Assembly: GCA_951406725.2 (NCBI GenBank)
Contig: OX597832.1
Location: 20,646,001-20,710,000 of the forward strand
Direction: 5' to 3'
DNA length: 64,000 nucleotides
Origin: Octopus vulgaris
Lineage: Eukaryota
Shown here: positions 4,548 to 61,624 of the stretch, piece after piece
How the letters are laid out: every line of letters begins with the position of its first letter
Numbering within the stretch: position 1 is the stretch's first letter
Position numbers and translations under genes: made by a program
Notes under the pieces: generated by a model
What the model saw: the letters and a program-made list of their open reading frames with translations, nothing else
The model's database searches: none
Told to the model about the DNA's origin: nothing

Positions 4548-5592
4548 CAGAGTGCGATGGGTAAATTAGCGCCGTTTTAGTTTTTTTTTAACTTCACGCA
4601 TACGCATTGTTTGTTTTTGAATTTGTTGACTACACTGTATAGTAGGGTTATGTGGGCACCGTCTGTGGGAAATACAGCACCATGACGCGAGTAACTCTGT
4701 CAGAAATTTGGAAACGACATGCTGTGCTGCTTGGTATTCGCTATGGAACTCTAATACGAACTTCTCAGAGTGTCTGGTTGTCAATCTGAGAACATTGTAG
4801 CGGATTCGGAAAAATTTTTTAAGTTTAATGGTGATCACGAAGGTATGGTAGCTAGAAAAATCACTCTGATCGTTCTGATAAGAAAAGAACTCCTGGAATA
4901 CTTGGTGAGGTTCAAGACATGATTGACAACCGAAGATATTTGGTATTTCTCATACAATATGGGAAAGAGCCAAGTTTTATCGCAAACCATCAATGACAAG
5001 AGGAAATCCCCGCTACGTAACTTTTTAACAAACTCAAGCATCCCTTCCAACCGGTCATGATTTGGATTTTCTCAGACGAGAAATAATTCTGCCGGGATCA
5101 GATGCTGAACACACAGAACAACAGTTGGCTTGCTGTGTCCTCAACATATGTACCGAGAGTGGTAAAAGTCTAACATCCTGTCAACATCATAGTGTTTGGA
5201 GTGATCACTAGTGAAGGCGACGTTATGACTTCCCACATGGCCTCAGACTCAACACGGAGGCCGACATCAACTGCTTGGAGAAGGTAGTGCTGCCCTGGGT
5301 CAAGACGGTGGCTTCTGGAAGACCCTATGCTGACAACAGGACTCTGCACCATGCTACACAAGGAAGATAAACTAATCGTGGCTGTCAGACAATTTCTGCG
5401 ACCACATCACGCCTAACATCTCCGATCACATCAACCCGAACATCTGGCCGCCTAACACCCACCCACCCGACTGCAACCCCCTTGATCATTATTTGTGGGG
5501 CGCAGTTGAGCGAAGGACTTGTAACACCAAAGATGAACCGAAGGCAAGGATTATGGCAGCATTCACCAACTTAAACAAGGAGACCGTCCGGA
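4548..5592 (+). mobile_element. Decayed Tc1/mariner-superfamily transposon, DD37D (maT) type
   Basis: Begins TA|CAGAGTGCGATGGGTAAATT. Disrupted translation gives IWIFSDEK (5060-5083), VVLPWVKTVASGRPY-QQDSAPCYT (5284-5360) and WPPN..PDCNPLDHYLWGAVER (5445-5513). After removing small duplications, 37 residues separate the second and third Asp. Stops and frameshifts present; right end missing. Confidence 0.88.
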
Positions 5593-5799
5593 CGATCTTT
5601 ATACTTGCTCAGTTTTTGTTAGGTCTTGACAGATGCATTTATATCGATTGGGACATTCATATCAATGGGGTGATATGGTTTTTGTCTGAAGTCATTCAAT
5701 ATGATGTCTGGCCTATTTGCATCTATCTTACTGTCAGTTTGAATTCTGAAGTTCCAGAGGAATGAAATGTGGTAACTTTCAAGCACTGGAGGTGGTTTT
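5593..5799 (-). mobile_element. Fragment of an R4/Dong-like non-LTR retrotransposon (restriction-like endonuclease domain)
   Basis: Translation FLWNFRIQTDSKIDANRPDIILNDFRQKPYHPIDMNVPIDINASVKT*QKLSKYKD matches the LWDxxIQTD...NRPDI...ID.xVP...K.xKY motif of RLE-type LINEs. Abuts a (TAA)n tract. Confidence 0.8.
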
Positions 5800-5809
5800 G
5801 TTGTTGTTG

Positions 5810-5824
5810 TTATTATTATTATTA

Positions 5825-9740: not shown

Positions 9741-10070
9741 TCTTGGGCAAGTGTCTTCTGCTATAGCCCCGGGCCGACCAATGCCTTGTGAGTGGATTTG
9801 GTAGACGGAAACTGAAAGAAGCCTGTCGTATATATGTATATATATGTATATATGTGTGTGTGTGAGTTTGTGTATCTGTGTTTGTCCCCCTTGCATTGCT
9901 TGACAACCGATGCTGGTGTGTTTACGTCCCCGTCACCTAGCGATTCGGCAAAAGAGACCGATAGAATAAGTACTGGGCTTACAAAGAATAAGTCCCGGGG
10001 TCGATTTGTGCGACTAAAGGCGGTGCTCCAGCATGGCCGCAGTCAAATGACTGAAACAAGTAAAAGAAAA
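9741..10070 (+). mobile_element. SINE type A, head-truncated
   Basis: CTTGGGCAAGTGTCTTC...GGATTTGGTAGACGGAAACTGAAAGAAGCC...CAGTCAAATGACTGAAACAAGTAAAAG. Confidence 0.9.
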
Positions 10071-16412: not shown

Positions 16413-16774
16413 TACTCTTTTACTCTTTTACTTGTTTCAGTCATTTGACTGCGGCCATGCTGGAGCACCGCCTTTTAGTACTTATTCTATCGGTCTCTTT
16501 TGCCGAACCGCTAAGTAACGGGGACATAAGCACACCAGCATCGGTTGTCAAGCAATGCTAGGGGGACAAACACAAACACACACATACATACATATATATA
16601 TATATATATACGACAGGCTTCTTTCAGTTTCCGTCTACCAAATCCACTCACAAGGCTTTGGTCGGCCCGGGGCTACAGTAGAAGACACTTGCCCAAGATG
16701 CCACGCAGTGGGACTGAACCCGGAACCATGTGGCAGGTAGACAAGCTACTTACCACACAGCCACTCCTGCGCCT
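16413..16774 (-). mobile_element. tRNA-derived SINE, type A, near full length
   Basis: Minus strand head AGGCGCAGGAGTGGCTGTGTGGTAAG...GGGTTCAGTCCC (Pol III A/B boxes), CORE-like CTTGGGCAAGTG, internal (TA)/(TG) tract, tail ending AGTAAAAGAGTA repeats. Confidence 0.9.
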
Positions 16775-22818: not shown

Positions 22819-23598
22819 GAAGACCTCGCAGAGCAGCGTTAAATGAACTGCTTTTCCCAATAACACAACGTACCAGTCGGACCGGCGATCGAAAGCCGCG
22901 ATCCTGATATCGTGAGGGAAACAACTTAACTACTACGTCATGCGACCTGCACTGTAACAGAATCTTTAGCTCGGTAATGGAATATATATACTCTACTCTT
23001 TTTACTCTTTTTACTTGTTTCAGTCATTTGACTTCGGCCATGCTGGAGCACCGCCTTTAGTCGAGCAAATCGACCCCGGGACTTATTCTTTGTAAGCCCA
23101 GTACTTATTCTATCGGTCTCTTTTGCCGAACCGCTAAGTTACGGGGACGTAAACACACCAGCATCGGTTGTCAAGCAATGCTAGGGGAACAAACACAGAC
23201 ACAAACATATTCACATATTCACACACACTTATATATATATACATATATACGACAGGCTTCTTTCAGTTTCCATCTACCAAATCCACTCACAAGGCATTGG
23301 TCGACCCGGGGCTATAGCAGAAGACACTTGCCCAAGACGCCACGCAGTGGGACTGAACCCGGAACCATGTGGTTGGTTAGCAAGCTACTTACCAAACAGC
23401 CAAAGCATTTCTGCCTAAAGATTACACAGGGCTAAAATTCCATTGCCGAGCTAAAGATTGTTACAATGCAGGTTGCATGAAGTAGTAGTTAAGTTGTTTC
23501 CCTCACGATATAAAGATCGCGGTTTCGATCGCCGGACCGACTGGTACGTTGTGTTCTTGTGAAAAGCAGTTCATTTAACGCTGCTCCACGAGGTCTTC
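22819..23598. repeat. Inverted duplication (arms 22819-22983 and 23437-23598) enclosing a SINE A
   Basis: GAAGACCTCGCAGAGCAGCGTTAAATGAACTGCTTTTC...TCTTTAGCTCGGTAATGGAAT is the reverse complement of ATTCCATTGCCGAGCTAAAGA...GAAAAGCAGTTCATTTAACGCTGCTCCACGAGGTCTTC with scattered mismatches. Confidence 0.93.
22989..23401 (-). mobile_element. SINE type A, near full length
   Basis: Co-linear and highly similar to 16413-16774. Confidence 0.9.
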
Positions 23599-24217: not shown

Positions 24218-24259
<42 letters not shown>

Positions 24260-24297
24260 AATAAATGAAAGAATGGAGTTGAACGACGAATTAACAA

Positions 24298-24400
24298 AAT
24301 TCCTTTATATTCGACATATGTTTCGAAAGCTGCATATTCCTAATTTCGAAGGAATAAGGGGTGCATTATGCCGCCTTCTCATCAGGAAAAACAAGGAATT
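24298..24400 (-). ncRNA. Type I hammerhead ribozyme fold, complete catalytic core
   Basis: Minus strand reads AAUUCCUUGUUUUUC-CUGAUGA-GAAGGCGGCA-uaaugcacccc-u-UAUUCCU-ucgaaauu-AGGAAUA-UGCAGCUUUC-GAAA-C-AUAU-GUC-GAAUAUAAAGGAAUU. Core CUGAUGA/GAAA/GUC is intact. Stem I pairs 12 of 15 positions with an internal loop. Stem II pairs 9 of 10 and carries an extra hairpin. Stem III is minimal, with palindromic ACAUAUGU. Confidence 0.85.
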
Positions 24401-24469
24401 ATCCATAATAAGATAATTCAAGGATAAAACAAGGAATTATCCATAATAAGATAATTCATTCAACTACTC

Positions 24470-24511
<42 letters not shown>

Positions 24512-25194
24512 TCATCTACAAATACATTTATACATCTATGTCTACATTTACCTATTGGCATTCTTACCAATATGCACATACCTACGGTATTAACGTTTTC
24601 TCTATGATTTTTTTCTGTTTTTAACTTGTACTATATTTTGGGCATACCCATAAACTGTCGATCAAGTTGTGTGTGCGTGTTTGTTTGCGTAGGTGTGTGT
24701 GGATGTGTTTGTGTATGCGTGTAACTGTGCGTGTATGTGTGTATATGTGTGTGTAAAAGTACAGACAGAATGGTAAGTAGATAAATACGGTGTAGCATCT
24801 ATCTAGCTTTAACCTATAAGTGATATATCGACTGCACTCATTTAAATGAAGTCGGCAACCTCTCCTATCGGTTAGTCATTGTGCCAGCTCACAGAAGACA
24901 AAAAAGATATATCATAAAGCCAACTATATTTGCTAAGCGCTATTGAGATTTTATATAAAATTGTATATTTGTTTGGTGTACACTTTAGATTTACCTTGAG
25001 ATTTCCGCAACAGAATTCTCGCTCATAAAATATCTCAGAATGAATTGAACACTTGTTGGGATTTTGTTTGCAGTTATGTTATTTATTACTTTATTCTTGA
25101 ATAATTTTGTTGCTTATTGTTTTGATGCTTTAAGTAAACACACACACACACAGACGTACATTAAATATTCACTCGCTCTCTCTCTCTCTCTCTC

Positions 25195-25447
25195 TCACTC
25201 ATTCTATCTGTTTATTTATCTATCTATTGCTATCCCCCTCTCTTGCTTTCTCGCTCTCTCTTTCTCCCCCTCTCTTGCTTTCTCGCTCTCTCTTTCTCCT
25301 CTCTCTCTCTCTCTCTCTCTCTGTCACTCATTCTATCTGTTTATTTATCTATCTATTGCTATCCCCCTCTCTTGCTTTCTCGCTCTCTATTTCTCCCCCT
25401 CTCTTGCTTTCTCTCTCTCTCTTTCTCCCCCCTCTCTCTCTCTCTCT
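25195..25447. repeat. Local tandem duplication of about 125 bp in a CT-rich tract
   Basis: CACTCATTCTATCTGTTTATTTATCTATCTATTGCTATCCCCCTCTCTTGCTTTCTCGCTCTCT occurs twice. Confidence 0.85.
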
Positions 25448-30029: not shown

Positions 30030-30710
30030 TATTTGGTGAATGAGAACATTTGATGATGCTGCCCTAATCTATATTTCCTGCTGTGCGATACGCTCATCTG
30101 AAACCCTTGACAGGGGAAGATCCAACTTTGTTTTGAAGACACCTAGATCCACTTATGCATGCTTCTGAGACATTTTGGAAGGATATTAAAGAGTTTTGGG
30201 ACCTTGAAATTCAAGCTGTTGCGGTCTGGTCTTGTATGTTGATGGAGATGCTGGTATATTTAGCACTGTGTTGTAGAGCCCCGTTCTGCTGTTTGTGTAA
30301 CTTCCAATGACAAAGTTTGGTACAAGGCTTTCCAGGATATTCCAGATGTATATCATTGCATATGTTTCCCGCCTTCATTCTAAGAAGTGTTTTAATTCTT
30401 TCAATCTTGCATTAAGACGATTTTCTTTATCTAGCTTCGTTGGATTGTAAATTTTATATTGTGTTGTGGCCATAGTTGGGAGCAGTAATCCAATTTGCTG
30501 AGGACGTATGCCCTCAAATGGACCATCATTGACTCCTTTTCTTTTATTTTTAAAATTTGAAGGGTCCATCCAGCTACCCATCTGCATTTTATTACCAAAA
30601 TAGTAATATGCACTTGGAAAGATGCATCATTGCTCATGTCAATGCCCAGGTCACGCACCGAATTTATTCAGAGATTGCAATTCCTCCCGGGCCAGTGTAC
30701 CTTGTTTGGT
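30030..30710 (-). mobile_element. CR1-like LINE remnant (3' part of ORF2)
   Basis: [46 protein letters not shown] followed by RLKELK, YAMIYIWNILESLVPNF and PKLFNILP. Typical RT thumb and C-terminal region of CR1/L2-group LINEs; frameshifted. Confidence 0.85.
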
Positions 30711-35465: not shown

Positions 35466-35880
35466 AAGGTGAGCTGGCAGAAACGTTAGCACGCCGGGCG
35501 AAATGCTTAGCGGTATTTGGTCTGCCGTTACGTTCTGAGTTCAAATTTCGCCGATGTCGACTTTGCCTTTCATCCTTCCGGAGTCGATAAATTAAGTACC
35601 AGTTACGCACTTGGGTCAATGTAATCAACTTAATCCCTTTATCTGTCCTTGATTTTCCCTTTTATGTTTAGACCCTTGTGGGCAATAAAGAAATAAGAAA
35701 AGTTAGCTCGCCGGGCAAAATGCTTAGCGGTTTTTCGCATGTGTTTACGTTCTAAGTTCAAATTCCGTCGGGGTTCACTTTGCCTTTCATCCATTCGGAT
35801 GTACCAGTCGCGTAAAGGGGTCGATGTAATCGACTGGACCACACCTCAAAACTTTCGGACCTCGTGCCTAGTGTAGGAAA
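35466..35880 (+). mobile_element. SINE type B dimer
   Basis: GGTGAGCTGGCAGAAACGTTAGCACGCCGGGCG...GAGTTCAAAT (B box)...GCCTTTCATCCTTCCGGAGTCGATAAATTAAGTACCAG; second unit starts about 35697. Confidence 0.85.
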
Positions 35881-36164
35881 CAATAAAATATTTCTACTTT
35901 TCTTCAGATGAGACCATCCAGAACTGTTGCTGCTTAAGTTTATTGTCTGCACACATATAAAGGTAGTAAAATAAATGAGTCGCATCTATGATACAATTCG
36001 TGTATGTGTGTGTGTGAGTCTATGTGTGCATATATGCGCATGTGCATATAAATGGAAATATAAACGCATATGAATGTGTGTGTGTGCAAAAGCCTAGTGA
36101 CGGATTCGATCCTTGAACTACGTGGTAGTGAACCACTCTACTACACAGGCTTGCCTTTGTACAT

Positions 36165-40333: not shown

Positions 40334-41328
40334 TTACATATATATATACATACATACATAAATATATATACATTATACAGAAGGTGCATAAATTACAAGA
40401 AAGCAATATCTACATAGAATGAGAGAGATATTGTGATTATACATATGTGGAGAGAAAGATATACATTTATATATACATAGCGAGAGAGAGAGAGAGGGGG
40501 AGAGAGGGAGAGAGAGGAAGAGACAGACAGACGGACAGACAGACTGACTGATGGATGGATAGATAGATAGATAGATATATAGATAGATAGATAAGGAGCG
40601 AATACGAAGTGGAGGTGGGGGAAATTGCTTCAGAGAAGGCAGACAGTTGTATACGTATTTTGTATTGGCATGTAGGATGCGCACACCCACACGTGAACAC
40701 AAACATGTCCACATGCACAAACAGAAATCAAACACACATTCGTATATTAGCAAATATATTTAAAGTTAGTTATTGTTGGTGGTTTTGTTGATCCTTTTTC
40801 TTTCTTCTTTCTCTTTATTTTCTTCCCTTTTTTTTTTCCTTCCTCTCTTCTCCTTCTGTGACGCAGTGTGATATCAAATTAAGCCGAAGATCTTAAGCAT
40901 TGAAATGTGATCCAGATGGAATGAGAAAATTAATCAAACTCCTCAACCATAACGAGGAAGGATTTCCCTTCCATACATAAACGGCGCAAACTTTATTTGC
41001 ATTCCTCGTTCAAATACAAAAATAAATGATCCAATCTACCAAACTAACTGGAACATTAATATCAATGGATTCCTGGGGTAACTAACAAAACATTACAAAA
41101 CCAGCTATCAGATCAGCAATATTAATATTAAGAGCAAATGCCGACGGAGGGAAAAATCGTTAGAGCGTTCGACTTCATTCCTTGTTGTATTCGGTTTCTT
41201 ACTCCGCTTTAAGATTTGCATTCTGAGTTCAAACTATGTTAAAGTTAATTTCGGGTTGAATTCTTCCTGGGTCGGTACAATAATGTGTAAAGAATTCTTA
41301 GGATTAATAAAATCGTCTATTTATCTTC

Positions 41329-41933
41329 TTTTCTACTCTAGGCACAAGGCCCAATTTTTTTTTTTTAGCCACTCGATTACATCGACCCAGTACGCAGTTG
41401 GTACTTAATTTATCGACCCCGAAAAGATGAAATGCAAAGTTACCCTCAGCAGAATTTGAACTCAGAACGTAAAGACAGGCGAATAACGATAAACATTTCG
41501 CCTGGCATGCTGACGTTTCTTATTTCTTTATTGCCCACAAGGGGCTAAACATAGAGGGGACAGACAAAAGAATTAAGTCGATTACATTGATCCCAGTACG
41601 TAACTGGTACTTAATGTACCCACCCCGAAAGGATGAAAGGCAAAGTCAACCTCGGCGGAATTTGAACTCAGAACGTAGCGGCAGACAAAATACTTGTAAG
41701 CATTTCTCCCGGCGTGCTAACGATTCTTTTCTACTCTAGGCACAAAGCTCGAAATTTGGTGGGGAGGGGGCCACTCGATTAGATCGAGCGCAACTGGTAC
41801 TTAATTTATAGACCCCAAATGGATGAAAAGCAACGTCGACCTCAGCGGAATTTGAACTCAGAACGTAAGGACAGACGAAATACTGGTAAGCATTTGGTGC
41901 AGCATGTTAGCGATTCTGCCAGCTCGCCGTCTT
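41329..41933 (-). mobile_element. SINE type B trimer
   Basis: GAATTTGAACTCAGAACGTA occurs three times (about 41452, 41658, 41848); junctions near 41520 and 41727. Confidence 0.88.
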
Positions 41934-42865: not shown

Positions 42866-43678
42866 GGATACGTCTTCGTACCGGTGGATTATGTTTCTAA
42901 TACTCTGTTTGTATGAGAGATATAATTCAATAATTGCAACCAATACGGTAGGGAATCAGATTGCTATGAAATTGTACATCACAAACACTATAAATATCGA
43001 TACCACGATTTGCTTTGATCTTATAACGATCGTGTTGTGGCTGTTTTCAACCTATATATCAAATACAAATATTTTATGAATTTATAACTAAACACAGTAT
43101 CACCTGATTGACAACAGACTGCGACGACGAAATCGTGGTTCTGCCGACATGTGTGTATCGTTCTGGTATATATGTATGTAGTATCAATAATTTTATATCT
43201 ATACATCTATGCATGTCTGTACGTAGGTGTATAGTTACGTACGTTTCTTTGTGTATGTGTACGAATGTACGTAGTTTTGTATGTAGTGGTATGTACACAC
43301 ATATGCGTGTTTATGAATGTGTCTACGTGTGTAGTAGGGTGCGTGTATGCTTGTGTCAATGTGTGAGTATGCATGTATGCATGTATGTACATAGTACTGG
43401 GTAATGGCAGTTTAGCGAAACTTCATCAAATCGCGTAGACTAAAGAAGTTAAAGTGCAAACTTTGAGAGTCAACTCGTTACAACAGAAATAATGAGCGAA
43501 TAATAAGCGAATATGTATGCGTGTATATATATAAATATATCTGTGTGTGCACGTGTGTCTGTGTACATGTGTGCGTGTGATACACGTGCAAAATCCATCG
43601 GTGGGAAGATGTATCCTTTGTTATTATGTATCTGTTTTTTTTATAAACATAAATCTGTCCTCAAATATCTTACGCACC

Positions 43679-43734
<56 letters not shown>

Positions 43735-43854
43735 AGGACAGCTTTTTGTTAAGAATATTTAAAATGTTTAGCCAATAAAAACACACGCACTATATATTTG
43801 GTGTTAATTTGCTTCAGTGTTATTTATTTTTCACATTTATCTTAATCTTATATC

Positions 43855-43899
43855 GGCCAGAGTTCTTTCGTCACGCTTCTGTAACCTCATCAGTGGTCC
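43855..43899 (-). ncRNA. Minimal type I hammerhead ribozyme fold (copy 1)
   Basis: Minus strand GGACCA-CUGAUGA-G-GUUAC-agaagc-GUGAC-GAAA-G-aa-CUC-UGGCC. Core intact, 5-bp stem II, stem I GG(A)CCA/UGGCC, CUC cleavage triplet, stem III only 2 bp. Confidence 0.7.
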
Positions 43900-44670
43900 T
43901 TTGCTTTCTTCTTTCTTGTTTGTGTGTCTCTCCTTACTAACGGTCAGCAGATTGCTATGAAATTGTACATCACAAACACTATAAATATCGATACCACGAT
44001 TTGCTTTGATCTTATAACGATCGTGTTGTGGCTGTTTTCAACCTATATATCAAATACAAATATTTTATGAATTTATAACTAAACACAGTATCACCTGATT
44101 GATAACAGACTGCGACGACGAAATCGTGGTTCTGCCGACATGTGTGTATCGTTCTGGTATATATGTATGTAGTATCAATAATTTTATATCTATACATCTA
44201 TGCATGTCTGTACGTAGGTGTATAGTTACGTACGTTTCTTTGTGTATGTGTACGAATGTACGTAGTTTTGTATGTAGTGGTATGTACACACATATGCGTG
44301 TTTATGAATGTGTCTACGTGTGTAGTAGGGGTGCGTGTATGCTTGTGTCAATGTGTGAGTATGCATGTATGCATGTATGTACATAGTACTGGGTAATGGC
44401 AGTTTAGCGAAACTTCATCAAATCGCGTAGACTAAAGAAGTTAAAGTGCAAACTTTGAGAGTCAACTCGTTACAACAGAAATAATGAGCGAATAATAAGC
44501 GAATATGTATGCGTGTATATATATAAATATATCTGTGTGTGCACGTGTGTCAGTGTACATGTGTGCGTGTGATACACGTGCAAAATCCATCGGTGGGAAG
44601 ATGTATCCTTTGTTATTATGTATCTGTTTTTTTTATAAACATAAATCTGTCCTCAAATATCTTACGCACC

Positions 44671-44710
<40 letters not shown>

Positions 44711-44830
44711 AGGACAGATTTTTGTTAAGAATATTTAAAATGTTTAGCCAATAAAAACACACGCACTATATATTTGGTGTTAATTTGCTTCAGTGTTATT
44801 TATTTTTCACATTTATCTTAATCTTATATC

Positions 44831-44875
44831 GGCCAGAGTTCTTTCGTCACGCTTCTGTAACCTCATCAGTGGTCC
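44831..44875 (-). ncRNA. Minimal type I hammerhead ribozyme fold (copy 2)
   Basis: Same sequence as 43855-43899, 976 nt further along, inside the second unit of the tandem duplication. Confidence 0.7.
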
Positions 44876-45615
44876 TTTGCTTTCTTCTTTCTTGTTTGTG
44901 TGTCTCTCCTTACTAACGGTCAGCCATTTTGTATTTTGTTATTTGTTTTTGTTTATTTTTTTTATAAAAGAATAAACAAAAACTATTTTTAAAAAAATGC
45001 ATTTTTCAAGGAGAGGTGCTACGAAACTCCATTGGCCCCAGTTTAACTTACCAAAAGCATCATCTATGTTACCAAAATTCACTAAGTACCAACAAATATT
45101 TATCATGAAATCTTTGTATTATCCTGTCTCCCTATATATCTGTACGTCCAGTCTACTAGCTCGTCATCTCTCTAGCCATATTTGACATAGAGTCTTTCGG
45201 TCACTCAGTCATCTTGTATCTTCCTCATCCTGTTCCTTAATCTTCGCTTATCTTTCATTTTCTTTCCTAATTCCCTTTCTATACAGAGTTGTCTTTCTAC
45301 TACGCTTGTTCTTCATTAACTTTCCCCATATATTTCGCCAGATCAGAATATTCCATTTATTATAAGTAGCGTTGTTTCTTTTTGTTTTTATTTGTTTAGT
45401 TGTTTTTTTTTCTCATTGTATATAAATTTCTCCCTATCTGTTTTTCTTTCTCCATATCTTTAAAATTTTTCCTCTCACCATTGAAGTTTTTTTGGGCTTA
45501 AAATTCTTTCTCTATTTATTTATTTATTTATTTATCTATTTATTTATCTATCTATCTACCTACATATCTATCTATATTTCTACTTGTCTATCTATCTATT
45601 AATCTCTGTATTTAG

Positions 45616-49776: not shown

Positions 49777-50259
49777 CGCAGGAGTGGTTGTGTGGTCAGT
49801 AGCTTGCTTACCAACCGAATGGTCCCGTGTTCAGTCCCACTGCGTGGCACCTTGGGCAAGTATCTTGTACTATAGCCTCGGACCGACCAAAGCCCTGTGA
49901 GTGGATTTGGTAGACGGAAACTGAAAGAAGCCTGTCGTATATATGTGTGTGTGTGTGTATATGTTTCTGTGTCTGTGTTTGTCGTCCCAACATCGCTTGA
50001 CAACCGATGCCGTCGTGTTTACGTCCCCATAACGTAGCTGTTCGGCAAAAGAAGCCGATAGAATAAGTACTAGGCTTACAAAGAATAAGTCCCGGGCTCG
50101 ATTTGCTCGACTAAAGGTAAGTGGCTTGCTTACCAATCACATGGTTCCGGATTGAGTCCCACTGCGTGACACCTTCGGCAAGTGTCTTCTACTATAGCAT
50201 CAGGCCGACCAAAGGCTTGTGAGTGGATTTGGTAGACGGAAACTAAAAGAAGCCTGTCG

Positions 50260-50290
<31 letters not shown>

Positions 50291-50464
50291 GTGAGTGTGT
50301 GATTCTGTGTCTGTGTTTTCCCCCCAACATCGCTTGACAACCGATGCTGGTTGTTTACGTCTCCGTAACTTAACGATTCGGCAAAAAAGACCGATAGAAT
50401 AAGTACTAAGCTTATTCGACCAAAGCCTTCTGAGTGGATTTGGTAGACGGTAACTGAAAGAAGC

Positions 50465-50505
<41 letters not shown>

Positions 50506-50742
50506 TGTATGTATGTATATATGTGTGTGTGTATGTATTTGTTATTTTTACCTGTTTGTCTTCCCACTGATGCGTTTACGTCCCCATCACTTAGCAGTTC
50601 GGCAGAAAGCGAACTATAGAATAAGTACTAGGCTTACAAAGAATAAGTCCCGGGGTCGATTTGGTCGACTAAAGGCGGTACTCCAGAATGTCCGCAGTCA
50701 AATGACTGAAACAAGTAAGAGAGTAAAAAGCGAGTAAGAGTA
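49777..50742 (+). mobile_element. Head-to-tail array of three partial SINE type A copies
   Basis: GAGTGGATTTGGTAGACGG occurs at about 49899, 50221 and 50432; units restart at about 50117 and 50417. Confidence 0.88.
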
Positions 50743-51922
50743 TACATACATACATACATACATACATACATACATACACACAGACACACATACATACATA
50801 CATACACACAGACACACATACATACATACATAAACACATACATACATACATTAAATGGCGGTGCCCCAGCATGGCCACAGCTCAAGAGCTGAAACTGGAA
50901 AACATAAAACATAAAATAAAAACATAAACACATACATATATACATTTGTGTGTTTTTGTTTCAGTGCTCCTGTATGTATAAGGGTGGAGTATGTTTGCCA
51001 GCGTGTAAACTAAACGTTAAACATGCACACAGATTTCAAAATCATCCCTCGATGGAGTTAGTGGCGATTTTGTTTCTCGAGGGTTATGTTTATTTAATGC
51101 CGTACCTATTGTTTCGCTTCGTTATCGTCAATGCTGTTGCTGTTAGCTTGATGTTCATGTTGTTATTTATCATTGTTGCCGTTGTATTTTTATTCTAGTC
51201 GTTAATAATATCACCCATGCTGCAAAGCAATTTCTCTATTAATTTTCCTTTAAACTTAAATTCAATTTAGAAAATCTTAAGATACCTTTCTATCGCGTTT
51301 GTTTTGTTTTTTTTTTAATGAAATACCATTCAAATTTAGAAAATCGATTAAGTTCTTTCATCAATATCCCACCGCACCCGATATTCTATATTCGAAATTT
51401 TTGCATATCTTAATTAGGCCGCTCATTAAATGTAGCATGAAATTCTAAGAAATATATCCAGTTTATAGTCCAAGCAGTTTCGTAGCTGAAAATTTGTAAC
51501 TTTAATGTGAAGCCACGACGTGACAAATCGTTGGCGAATCGTTCATCGTTTTATAGCTAATTATCAAAAGGCACGACCGTTGTTGCAAAACTTTATGTTG
51601 TTCGTGGCATTGTTGATGATGTCATCACCGTTGCATCTGTATTCGTCATTGTCGTCATCGTTTCCTTCATCGTCATCGTCAGAGACTTTCCATTGCTGTC
51701 ATCGTCTCTTAATGTTTCATAGATTAAGCAATCAACGAGAGTATGTGTTTTTGTTTGTGTGTGTGTGTGTATATTCATTGTCTGCACACTCACCCCACAC
51801 ACACATGTACACACACAATACACACACACACAACACACACATATAAATATACATACATATATATATATATATGTGTGTGTGTGTGTATAATTATGTATAT
51901 ATATAAATATATATATATATAT

Positions 51923-54081: not shown

Positions 54082-54289
54082 TTCACAGTTATGGTGTCAT
54101 ACACCACGGAAGTTCAGGTAGTCGATTCTATTTTTTTAAAAATACGAGCTGATGGCAGGAGCTAAGGTAAATACAAACATTTAAAAACATAATTAAATTT
54201 TAATTAATTCTAGTATATTCTCTATGTATTTTCAACTTAATTTCTCTCTCTGAAACAAAAACACTCCAGGTCACACAAGTGTGAACTGT

Positions 54290-54510
54290 GGTAAGATACA
54301 ACGTCAAGCAGTAACTAATTAAAGAAGTATTTGCCACCTCTGTTCTACCTTTCAGGGGTAATTTCTTCTCTGTCAATTTCTGAGAAAGACTGTCCACCTT
54401 GTTTGTAAATTCACAGTCGTGCTTGTACATTTCAAGATCCGGGAAAAACCAAACAGTGAGCAATTTCATTGGTTTGTCTACCCGTCGACCTACAATGCTT
54501 TCATTAGCAT
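54290..54510 (-). mobile_element. Tx1/L1-like LINE ORF2 fragment
   Basis: IVGRRVDKPMKLLTVWFFPDLEM...KVDSLSQKLTEKKLPLKGRTEVAN resembles the KxLGVxF...WxxRxLSLxGR motif following the RT domain in L1/Tx1 elements. Confidence 0.6.
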
Positions 54511-55173
54511 AGTTTTGCCTCTGCAGTTGCCGAGCTGGAGCGTTTACTTTTCTGGTTCCTGTGGAAAGGGTGTGTTCCACTGGTTCACCTGATGACGGTC
54601 TTAGTACGCAATGTTTGCTAATACGATAGGCATGCGCTGCGGTTATACCGGTTACAGATTTTCCTGGACTGTGAGCCGGTGTATTCTACAATTGTATGAC
54701 ACGCTTTTCTGCAGCACTTATCTTTAACGGAGATGCAGTCATGTGTCAGGAAAAGACCAAGATTAAGCCCGTGGAACCTTTAGAATCGCCAGGGGCTCAC
54801 TGCTCTCTACCAGTTTGGTAATACAGTAATTTGAAGTTTTATGGTAGTAATATATAGAAATTTAGTGGTTAGTTAGACATTTTTGGGGTAACTCTAGACG
54901 TCGACGAAGATGAACTAGTTCGTCCATTTCGTAGGAGTTTCGGGCTCATTACCGCCTTAGATACTTTCCAGAAATCCTTAGCCTGATAGTACTACTGAAT
55001 AGCATTGACAGTTCGAGATAAATTCTGCAGGCACGGAAGCGCTGTCAGGTGGGACGTAATCTTTCTGCATGCCCTCCGGCAGGGTCCGAGTATTGCTGAC
55101 TTGTGGAGTTATATCGAACAGCTGTTATCAAATGTGAGACGAATTCGACTATTTCTTTCAACATCAGCATACT

Positions 55174-60553: not shown

Positions 60554-60731
60554 TCTCTGTATGTGTGTTTGTATGTGTGTGTGTATGAGCATCTATGTAG
60601 ATATACTTCTATATGTGTGTGTGTGTACGTGTGCATTTTTGTGTGTATGAATATGTATGTAAATATCTATCTATGTGTGTGTGGGTGTATGTGTGTGGCT
60701 ATATATATATGAGCATCTATGTAGATATCCT

Positions 60732-60786
<55 letters not shown>

Positions 60787-61624
60787 TTGTGTGCAAGTGC
60801 ATTTTGTGTGTATGACTATCTATGTAGGTATCTATATATATTCGTGTGTGTATTTGTGTGCGTATAAGTATTTTTGTAGGCAGGCATCTATATGTGTGTG
60901 TGAGTGTGTGTACATGTATGAGTATGTATGTAGGTATCGATCAATATATACGTGTGTATGTATTTTTGTGCTTATGATAATCTATGTAGGTATACATCTA
61001 TATGTGTGTATGCGTGTTTGTGTATGTAGGTAGGTATCTATCTATATGTGTATGTGTGTGTATGAATAGATATCCAGCTATATGCGTGTGCACGTGTATG
61101 TATGCGTGAGTGTGTGTGTGCGTGTATGAGTATGTAGGTGTCTATCTATATGTGTATGTGTGTGTGTATGAATATCTATCGAGCTGTCCATCAATATATA
61201 CGTGCGTGTGTGTGTATGTATTTGTGTGCGAATGATCATGTAAATATGTATCCATCTACATGTGTGTGTGTGCATGTGTGCATGTGTGTGTGCATGTGCA
61301 TATGTGTGTATTTGTGTGTGTGTGTGTGTGTGTTTGCGTGAGCGGGTAAATACATAAAGATTCACCCAAATACGAACATGACTGCATGCTCAAAAAATGT
61401 TAGTGATGCACTCATGCAAAGAATGCACTCCAGTTGTTTCGTTGAAGACAGAAAGAAACCTTGTCGATGTTTCTACCTTCCTGCTTCAGAGACATCGTCG
61501 AAGCAGAGTGCAGTGTGCAGTGTGCAGTATGCACTGAGCCTGCAGCTGTAGAATCTATTCAAAAATACACGATAAATTTAAAAGAGTGTAAAGGAGTTGC
61601 TAGAATGAATAGGAGAGGGCAATG

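Follow-up and report, generated by a model that had tools for sequence, protein, structure and literature searches.

The locus described here raises the question of whether two hammerhead ribozyme motifs, set in tandem in a duplication of about 1 kb, are the product of a ribozyme-bearing element that copied host DNA, or whether an ordinary duplication took along a ribozyme relic that was already in place. It lies in a stretch of 64 kb of the Octopus vulgaris genome (contig OX597832.1), which was analysed as a whole and is called the window here; its features are collected in Table 1. The window is free of N, has a GC content of about 26-41% and gives 213 TRF rows, mainly microsatellites; we take its content to be octopus intergenic or intronic DNA. 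As argued below, the locus is probably an older, decaying terminal-repeat (pLTR) relic of a Penelope-like element (PLE) that was captured by a young local duplication, the latter likely assisted by microhomology.

Table 1. Coordinates of the features of the duplicated locus (positions in the window).
Feature	Position	Strand	Remarks
Repeat unit 1	42957..43947		non-coding; decayed GT/AT microsatellites, (TA)n run, hammerhead-bearing segment
(TA)n run, unit 1	43682..43731		16 nt longer than 44674-44707 of unit 2
Putative 5'-truncated pLTR relic of a PLE, copy 1	43732..43947	-	suggested by motif type and (TA)n adjacency; 3' end taken at (TA)n
Hammerhead motif copy 1, minimal PLE-type type I	43855..43899	-	C3 43893, predicted cleavage after 43860 (C17)
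Hypothetical 976-nt monomer between predicted cleavage sites	43860..44835	-	predicted fold
Duplication junction	43944..43950	+	1-nt exact microhomology, or TCAG (also 42956-42959) + extra CAG
Repeat unit 2	43948..44923		compared with unit 1: 3 substitutions, 1-nt indel, 16-nt shorter (TA)n
Putative pLTR relic, copy 2	44708..44923	-	true 5' end may lie beyond 44923
Hammerhead motif copy 2, minimal PLE-type type I	44831..44875	-	C3 44869, predicted cleavage after 44836 (C17)

The two units (991 and 976 nt) form a head-to-tail, two-copy repeat, as both the alignment of 42957-43948 with 43948-44924 and the TRF result (period 991, 2.0 copies) indicate, and the tandem, near-identical units of the original prediction are thereby borne out. 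Apart from the (TA)n length, the units differ by three substitutions (43112/44103, 43560/44552 and 43742/44718) and by the indel, which falls within a G run (after 43336 / at 44328). Counting substitutions only, their divergence is 3 of 975 sites, or 0.31% (95% interval 0.06-0.90%). Divided by twice the neutral rate of 0.0036 per million years quoted for octopus (PMC13282606), this places the duplication at about 0.4 (0.1-1.2) million years ago, if that rate applies. At the junction a CAG had been described as shared between the units; the exact microhomology is only 1 nt, and CAG occurs twice there (43945-47 and 43948-50). Equivalently, both ends can be read as sharing the 4-nt homology TCAG, with one extra CAG at the join, an arrangement like those left by slippage or end joining at microhomologies. 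Between the 40-nt flanks no word of 4 nt or more is shared, and therefore no target-site duplication (TSD) is present; no poly(A) was found at the unit end either. Features of a microhomology-mediated local tandem duplication are present (a head-to-tail copy of unique DNA, homology of a few bases at both ends and a small repeated insert), the sole departure being the ribozyme motif near one of the breakpoints.

Each unit carries one type I hammerhead motif on the minus strand; the two copies are identical in sequence and 976 nt apart. The expected distance of about 50 nt between hammerhead and unit boundary agrees with the measured ones (54 nt for C3, 48 nt for helix I), and 87-88 nt separate the predicted cleavage site from the breakpoint upstream of it. 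The core had also been called intact, which is correct for the conserved core bases, all of which are present, but not for helices I and III, which are imperfect: helix I consists of 3 bp, a bulge and 2 bp, and helix III of 2 bp, with complementary positions 15.2/16.2 and a non-palindromic centre. An extra G follows A9, and a G10.1-C11.1 pair then closes a 5-bp helix II with a 6-nt loop. A descriptor modelled on the published consensus of minimal hammerheads (PMC4209133 Fig. S3) matched two independent loci in the window and was matched in 4 of the 300 block-shuffled windows (mean 0.013), a null that is somewhat generous because the descriptor was widened after the motifs had been seen (a stricter first version missed the duplicated motif owing to its extra base and was relaxed afterwards). 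Variant cores (U3-A8, U3, or one inserted base) gave no descriptor match in the window. Rfam returned no hammerhead match for the two motif regions, and no hammerhead family was among the matches listed for the whole window (150 of 634). A hammerhead-like stretch picked out by eye on the plus strand (about 43098-43139) failed the descriptor; the right arm of a perfect 10-bp inverted repeat (43002-43011 / 43130-43139, 118 nt apart) falls within it.

Minimal hammerheads sit in the terminal repeats of PLEs, and most of them are isolated remnants that truncated copies left behind (Cervera and de la Pena, PMC4209133). The motif has in common with them the core CUGANGA ... GAAA ... UH in type I topology, an extra nucleotide between A9 and position 10.1 together with the G10.1-C11.1 pair, a short helix I (about 3-5 bp in the PLE hammerheads), a 5-bp helix II, a tiny helix III that needs a dimer, and an AU-rich 3' flank; the closest layout in Fig. 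S3 of that paper is Adineta vaga(1), where helix III has 2 bp and encloses two bases. The motif deviates from the consensus in its extra base (G against H, although Nasonia also has G), in its upstream side, which is A-rich rather than U-rich, in the bulge of helix I, and in helix III: in the PLE hammerheads 15.2-16.2 and loop 3 are palindromic and permit a dimer, whereas here only 15.2 and 16.2 are complementary. The locus is without an attached PLE open reading frame, as is usual for truncated copies. Judged from these sequence features, the architecture is of the minimal PLE type and not of the canonical retrozyme type, in support of the link to PLEs that had been proposed.

From the predicted cleavage site, a 3' tail of about 130 nt extends to the (TA)n run; a bias towards insertion at microsatellites is reported for several PLE clades (PMC8557442). 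A 19-nt inverted repeat encloses the (TA)n run (43646-43664 / 43732-43750 in unit 1, 44638-44656 / 44708-44726 in unit 2), and its arms may be the ends of two related elements that face each other. The arms match at 18 of 19 positions in unit 2 and at 17 of 19 in unit 1, and the base at 43742 is therefore likely the derived one. The remainder of each unit is decayed microsatellite and unique DNA, so that the content of the unit as a whole is composite and host-like, and parts of it recur elsewhere in the window as low-complexity matches only. The plus strand is mostly pyrimidine-rich from 44801 to about 46100.

Among the three short motifs with which the supplement of PLE consensus sequences (PMC8557442) was queried, none gave a relevant match. 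Pfam searches of 281 of the 285 non-repetitive ORF fragments of at least 45 aa in the window (the four omitted being unit-2 duplicates) gave nothing at E<=0.01, and in 27 read-through frames from the surroundings of the locus and of the second motif described below Pfam found neither a reverse transcriptase (RT) nor a GIY-YIG domain. The frame that spans motif and breakpoint (44784-44972), compared with proteins of 34-111 aa only, had five candidates, none of them at E<=0.01; the sole phmmer match of 44966-45118, a NACHT/TPR-repeat protein of 1381 aa with six weak stretches, was judged spurious. Dispersed repeat families of 150-400 bp and 70-96% identity, which we take to be octopus SINEs, occur across the window (e.g., 317-496, 9887-10061, 16476-16771, 22983-23402, 35479-35890, 41318-41928 and 49777-50748). 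Some short ORF pieces resemble, by their motifs, parts of other transposable elements, namely a Tc1/mariner transposase end and an R4/Dong-type endonuclease (5376-5810, at 5.4-5.8 kb), a CR1-type RT end (30378-30667) and an L1/Tx1-type RT piece (54203-54685); Pfam gave no match for any of these pieces.

The second motif is an unrelated PLE-type hammerhead on the minus strand, 19 kb from the duplicated one (24258-24472; C3 24385, C17 24313). Its segment of about 215 bp has (TA)n on both sides, helix II is extended to 54 nt, helix III is a perfect 8-nt palindrome, and Rfam again gave no hammerhead match. Directly 5' of its core lies a 38-bp tandem duplication (24384-24458, 97%), the size of which matches the end extension of 30-40 bp reported for PLE insertions (PMC8557442); once this duplicate is discounted, the element starts about 50 nt upstream of its C3. 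Tandem duplications without hammerheads are found at 25172-25447 (129 bp, 95%, CT-rich) and 60578-61041 (52-110 bp, 67-84%), and they show a background of local duplication events. Hammerhead relics appear to be common in the window, at about one per 30 kb (n=2), and a random 1-kb segment of it contains such a motif about 3% of the time.

With regard to activity, the isolated 51-nt motif folds helices I and II with a predicted probability >0.9 (MFE -8.6 kcal/mol, with a folding z-score of only -0.57), and within a 1241-nt transcript the pairing probability falls to 0.05 for helix I and 0.00 for helix III. The intermolecular helix III duplex that dimer activity needs is predicted at +1.4 kcal/mol, against -7.0 kcal/mol for the second hammerhead, which by these models is the better candidate for activity. 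Published tests agree with these predictions: on its own a minimal hammerhead showed no cleavage, and multimers showed weak cleavage (PMC4209133), while 8 of 9 predicted Xenopus retrozyme dimers showed none in vitro (10.64898/2026.07.22.740005). The original prediction envisaged a 976-nt monomer released from a minus-strand transcript; the spacing fits, and such a monomer would be bounded if both hammerheads cleaved. A minus-strand transcript with both motifs is predicted to self-cleave poorly, if at all, so that little or no circle of 976 nt would be expected. Its predicted energy as a circle is -203.5 kcal/mol, and 23 of 30 control windows are at least as stable, i.e., the predicted structure of the circle does not exceed that of ordinary window DNA. 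An AATAAA is present on the minus strand of each unit (43828 and 44804), 32 nt downstream of the predicted cleavage site.

Under the reading that we prefer, a relic caught in a later duplication, a 5'-truncated PLE copy would have inserted next to a (TA)n run long ago; the minimal hammerhead that remained of it would then have become imperfect (bulged helix I, non-palindromic helix III). Because the units are near-identical and the helices are imperfect in both copies, decay of the motif before the duplication is suggested. In the duplication itself, a growing strand with TCAG at its end may have paired anew with a second TCAG some 1 kb behind, shifted by three bases and copied the segment again, roughly 0.1-1.2 million years ago if the octopus rate applies. 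Ordinary duplication, which had been listed as an alternative, thus fits best, and the proposal that ribozyme-element activity duplicated host DNA is not supported, given the offset of the breakpoint, the lack of a TSD and the poor predicted folding; in particular, copying of a cleaved RNA would be expected to begin at its cleavage site, whereas the breakpoint is 87-88 nt upstream. Some findings count against the preferred reading. The prior that a random duplication in the window breaks within 100 nt of a hammerhead is only about 1.3%, and the only other high-identity, non-microsatellite tandem duplication found there, the 38-bp one, also abuts the 5' side of a hammerhead (n=2, noticed after the fact). 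The isolated motif does fold its helices I and II, and microhomology and near-blunt joins are also seen with reverse-transcriptase insertions (PMC3846280).

It is unlikely that the duplication is an assembly artefact, an alternative already named with the original prediction, in which the assembly would have placed two alleles, or two contig ends that overlap, one after the other, and the true sequence would have a single unit with one hammerhead. Five differences in 975 nt are within the reach of allelic variation, and the G-run indel and the (TA)n length are typical of alleles or of long-read error. The heterozygosity of O. vulgaris is 1.22% (10.1101/2023.05.16.540928), at which five or fewer differences have a Poisson probability of P=0.02, although heterozygosity is patchy. 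The lack of any N in 64 kb suggests a long-read contig, the reads of which should span 2 kb, and the TCAG/CAG join has the appearance of a scar left by biological repair.

Rather unlikely, too, is copying in place by a PLE reverse transcriptase from an uncleaved read-through RNA of its own locus. Such an RNA would have its start some 55 nt 5' of the hammerhead core and extend about 760 nt into the flank; a nick at 42956/42957, priming on the homologous RNA, would then yield an exact tandem copy that ends at the 5' end of the RNA. The position of the breakpoint, 54-55 nt upstream of C3, is in agreement with this, as is the similar start of the 24258-24472 element. PLEs form partial tandems (PMC8557442), and 336 recently active PLE insertions in 31 families are known in O. 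vulgaris (PMC13282606). There is also a precedent for the capture of host DNA by rotifer Penelope elements, families of which hold 0.9-1.5 kb of it between pLTRs (PMC3846280), and the arrangement of pLTR, host-like spacer of about 0.8 kb and pLTR at this locus is like that of Pen1 and Pen3a of Adineta vaga and similar in size. In A. vaga, however, the captured DNA was relocated, with an 8-bp TSD (Pen3a) and an ORF (Pen1), whereas here the spacer copies the adjacent flank and neither a TSD nor an ORF is found. Further points against in-place copying are that the putative nick site is not a microsatellite, that the AATAAA below the predicted cleavage site could end the RNA early, and that the motif looks decayed and its transcription is hypothetical; the mechanism is moreover our own proposal and is not taken from any paper.

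We consider it very improbable that the locus is a true non-LTR retrozyme dimer, i.e., that the whole 976-nt unit is mobile and that a cDNA with two copies of a circular RNA was inserted here. Like metazoan non-LTR retrozymes, the units are tandem, in the same orientation, non-coding and low in GC, each with a complete type I hammerhead. With a period of 991/976 and a motif MFE of -8.6 kcal/mol the locus would also pass the operational screen of 10.64898/2026.07.22.740005 (two consecutive units, period <1000, complete type I motif, MFE < -5 kcal/mol), whose families span 51-972 bp, the unit here being at the top edge of that range. The units of characterised animal retrozymes measure 150-450 bp, which 976-991 nt far exceeds, and their circles are highly self-paired and 170-400 nt long (PMC7229834), unlike the unremarkable 976-nt circle. 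Retrozymes carry a canonical type I hammerhead rather than a minimal one with a short, bulged helix I and an extra base, and a TSD >4 bp (an optional feature) is missing here. Characterised retrozymes are multi-copy families, whereas no further copy of this unit, with its composite, microsatellite-rich content, occurs in the 64-kb window. Of the retrozyme-like arrangement in the original prediction the layout alone thus holds, while unit size, canonical ribozyme, circle structure and TSD fail, and the locus is not filed as a retrozyme.

A hammerhead that arose fortuitously in ordinary DNA, which then became duplicated, is likewise highly unlikely: the missing Rfam match, the folding z-score, the lack of linked PLE coding sequence and the A-rich upstream side would agree with it, but the descriptor was matched in few shuffles, features such as the extra base after A9, the G10.1-C11.1 pair and the complementary 15.2/16.2 need not arise by chance (PMC4209133), and the window holds another motif of this class. 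A circle-first origin was rejected on logic, because a 976-nt circle requires two ribozymes, and hence the duplication, beforehand.

On the preferred reading, that of a relic carried along by a duplication, the locus matters little in itself, as one of thousands of PLE-type minimal hammerheads in animal genomes. It does call for caution, in that automated retrozyme screens would score it as an active dimer. In a limited literature search, octopus hammerhead families were not seen described, and surveying them across the genome may be new. Were duplication breakpoints enriched just upstream of such motifs, the way in which retrozymes arise from PLE terminal repeats would become directly testable. 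It is conceivable, if quite improbable, that a retrozyme-like dimer was born here from host DNA: a read-through RNA started by the PLE terminal repeat, about 55 nt 5' of its hammerhead, would have been copied in place by PLE reverse transcriptase, and the tandem so formed would have armed ribozymes that need a dimer and had been silent before, with release of a 976-nt circle of ordinary DNA; if this were true, hammerhead-bearing PLE relics would systematically give rise to tandem duplications in this genome.
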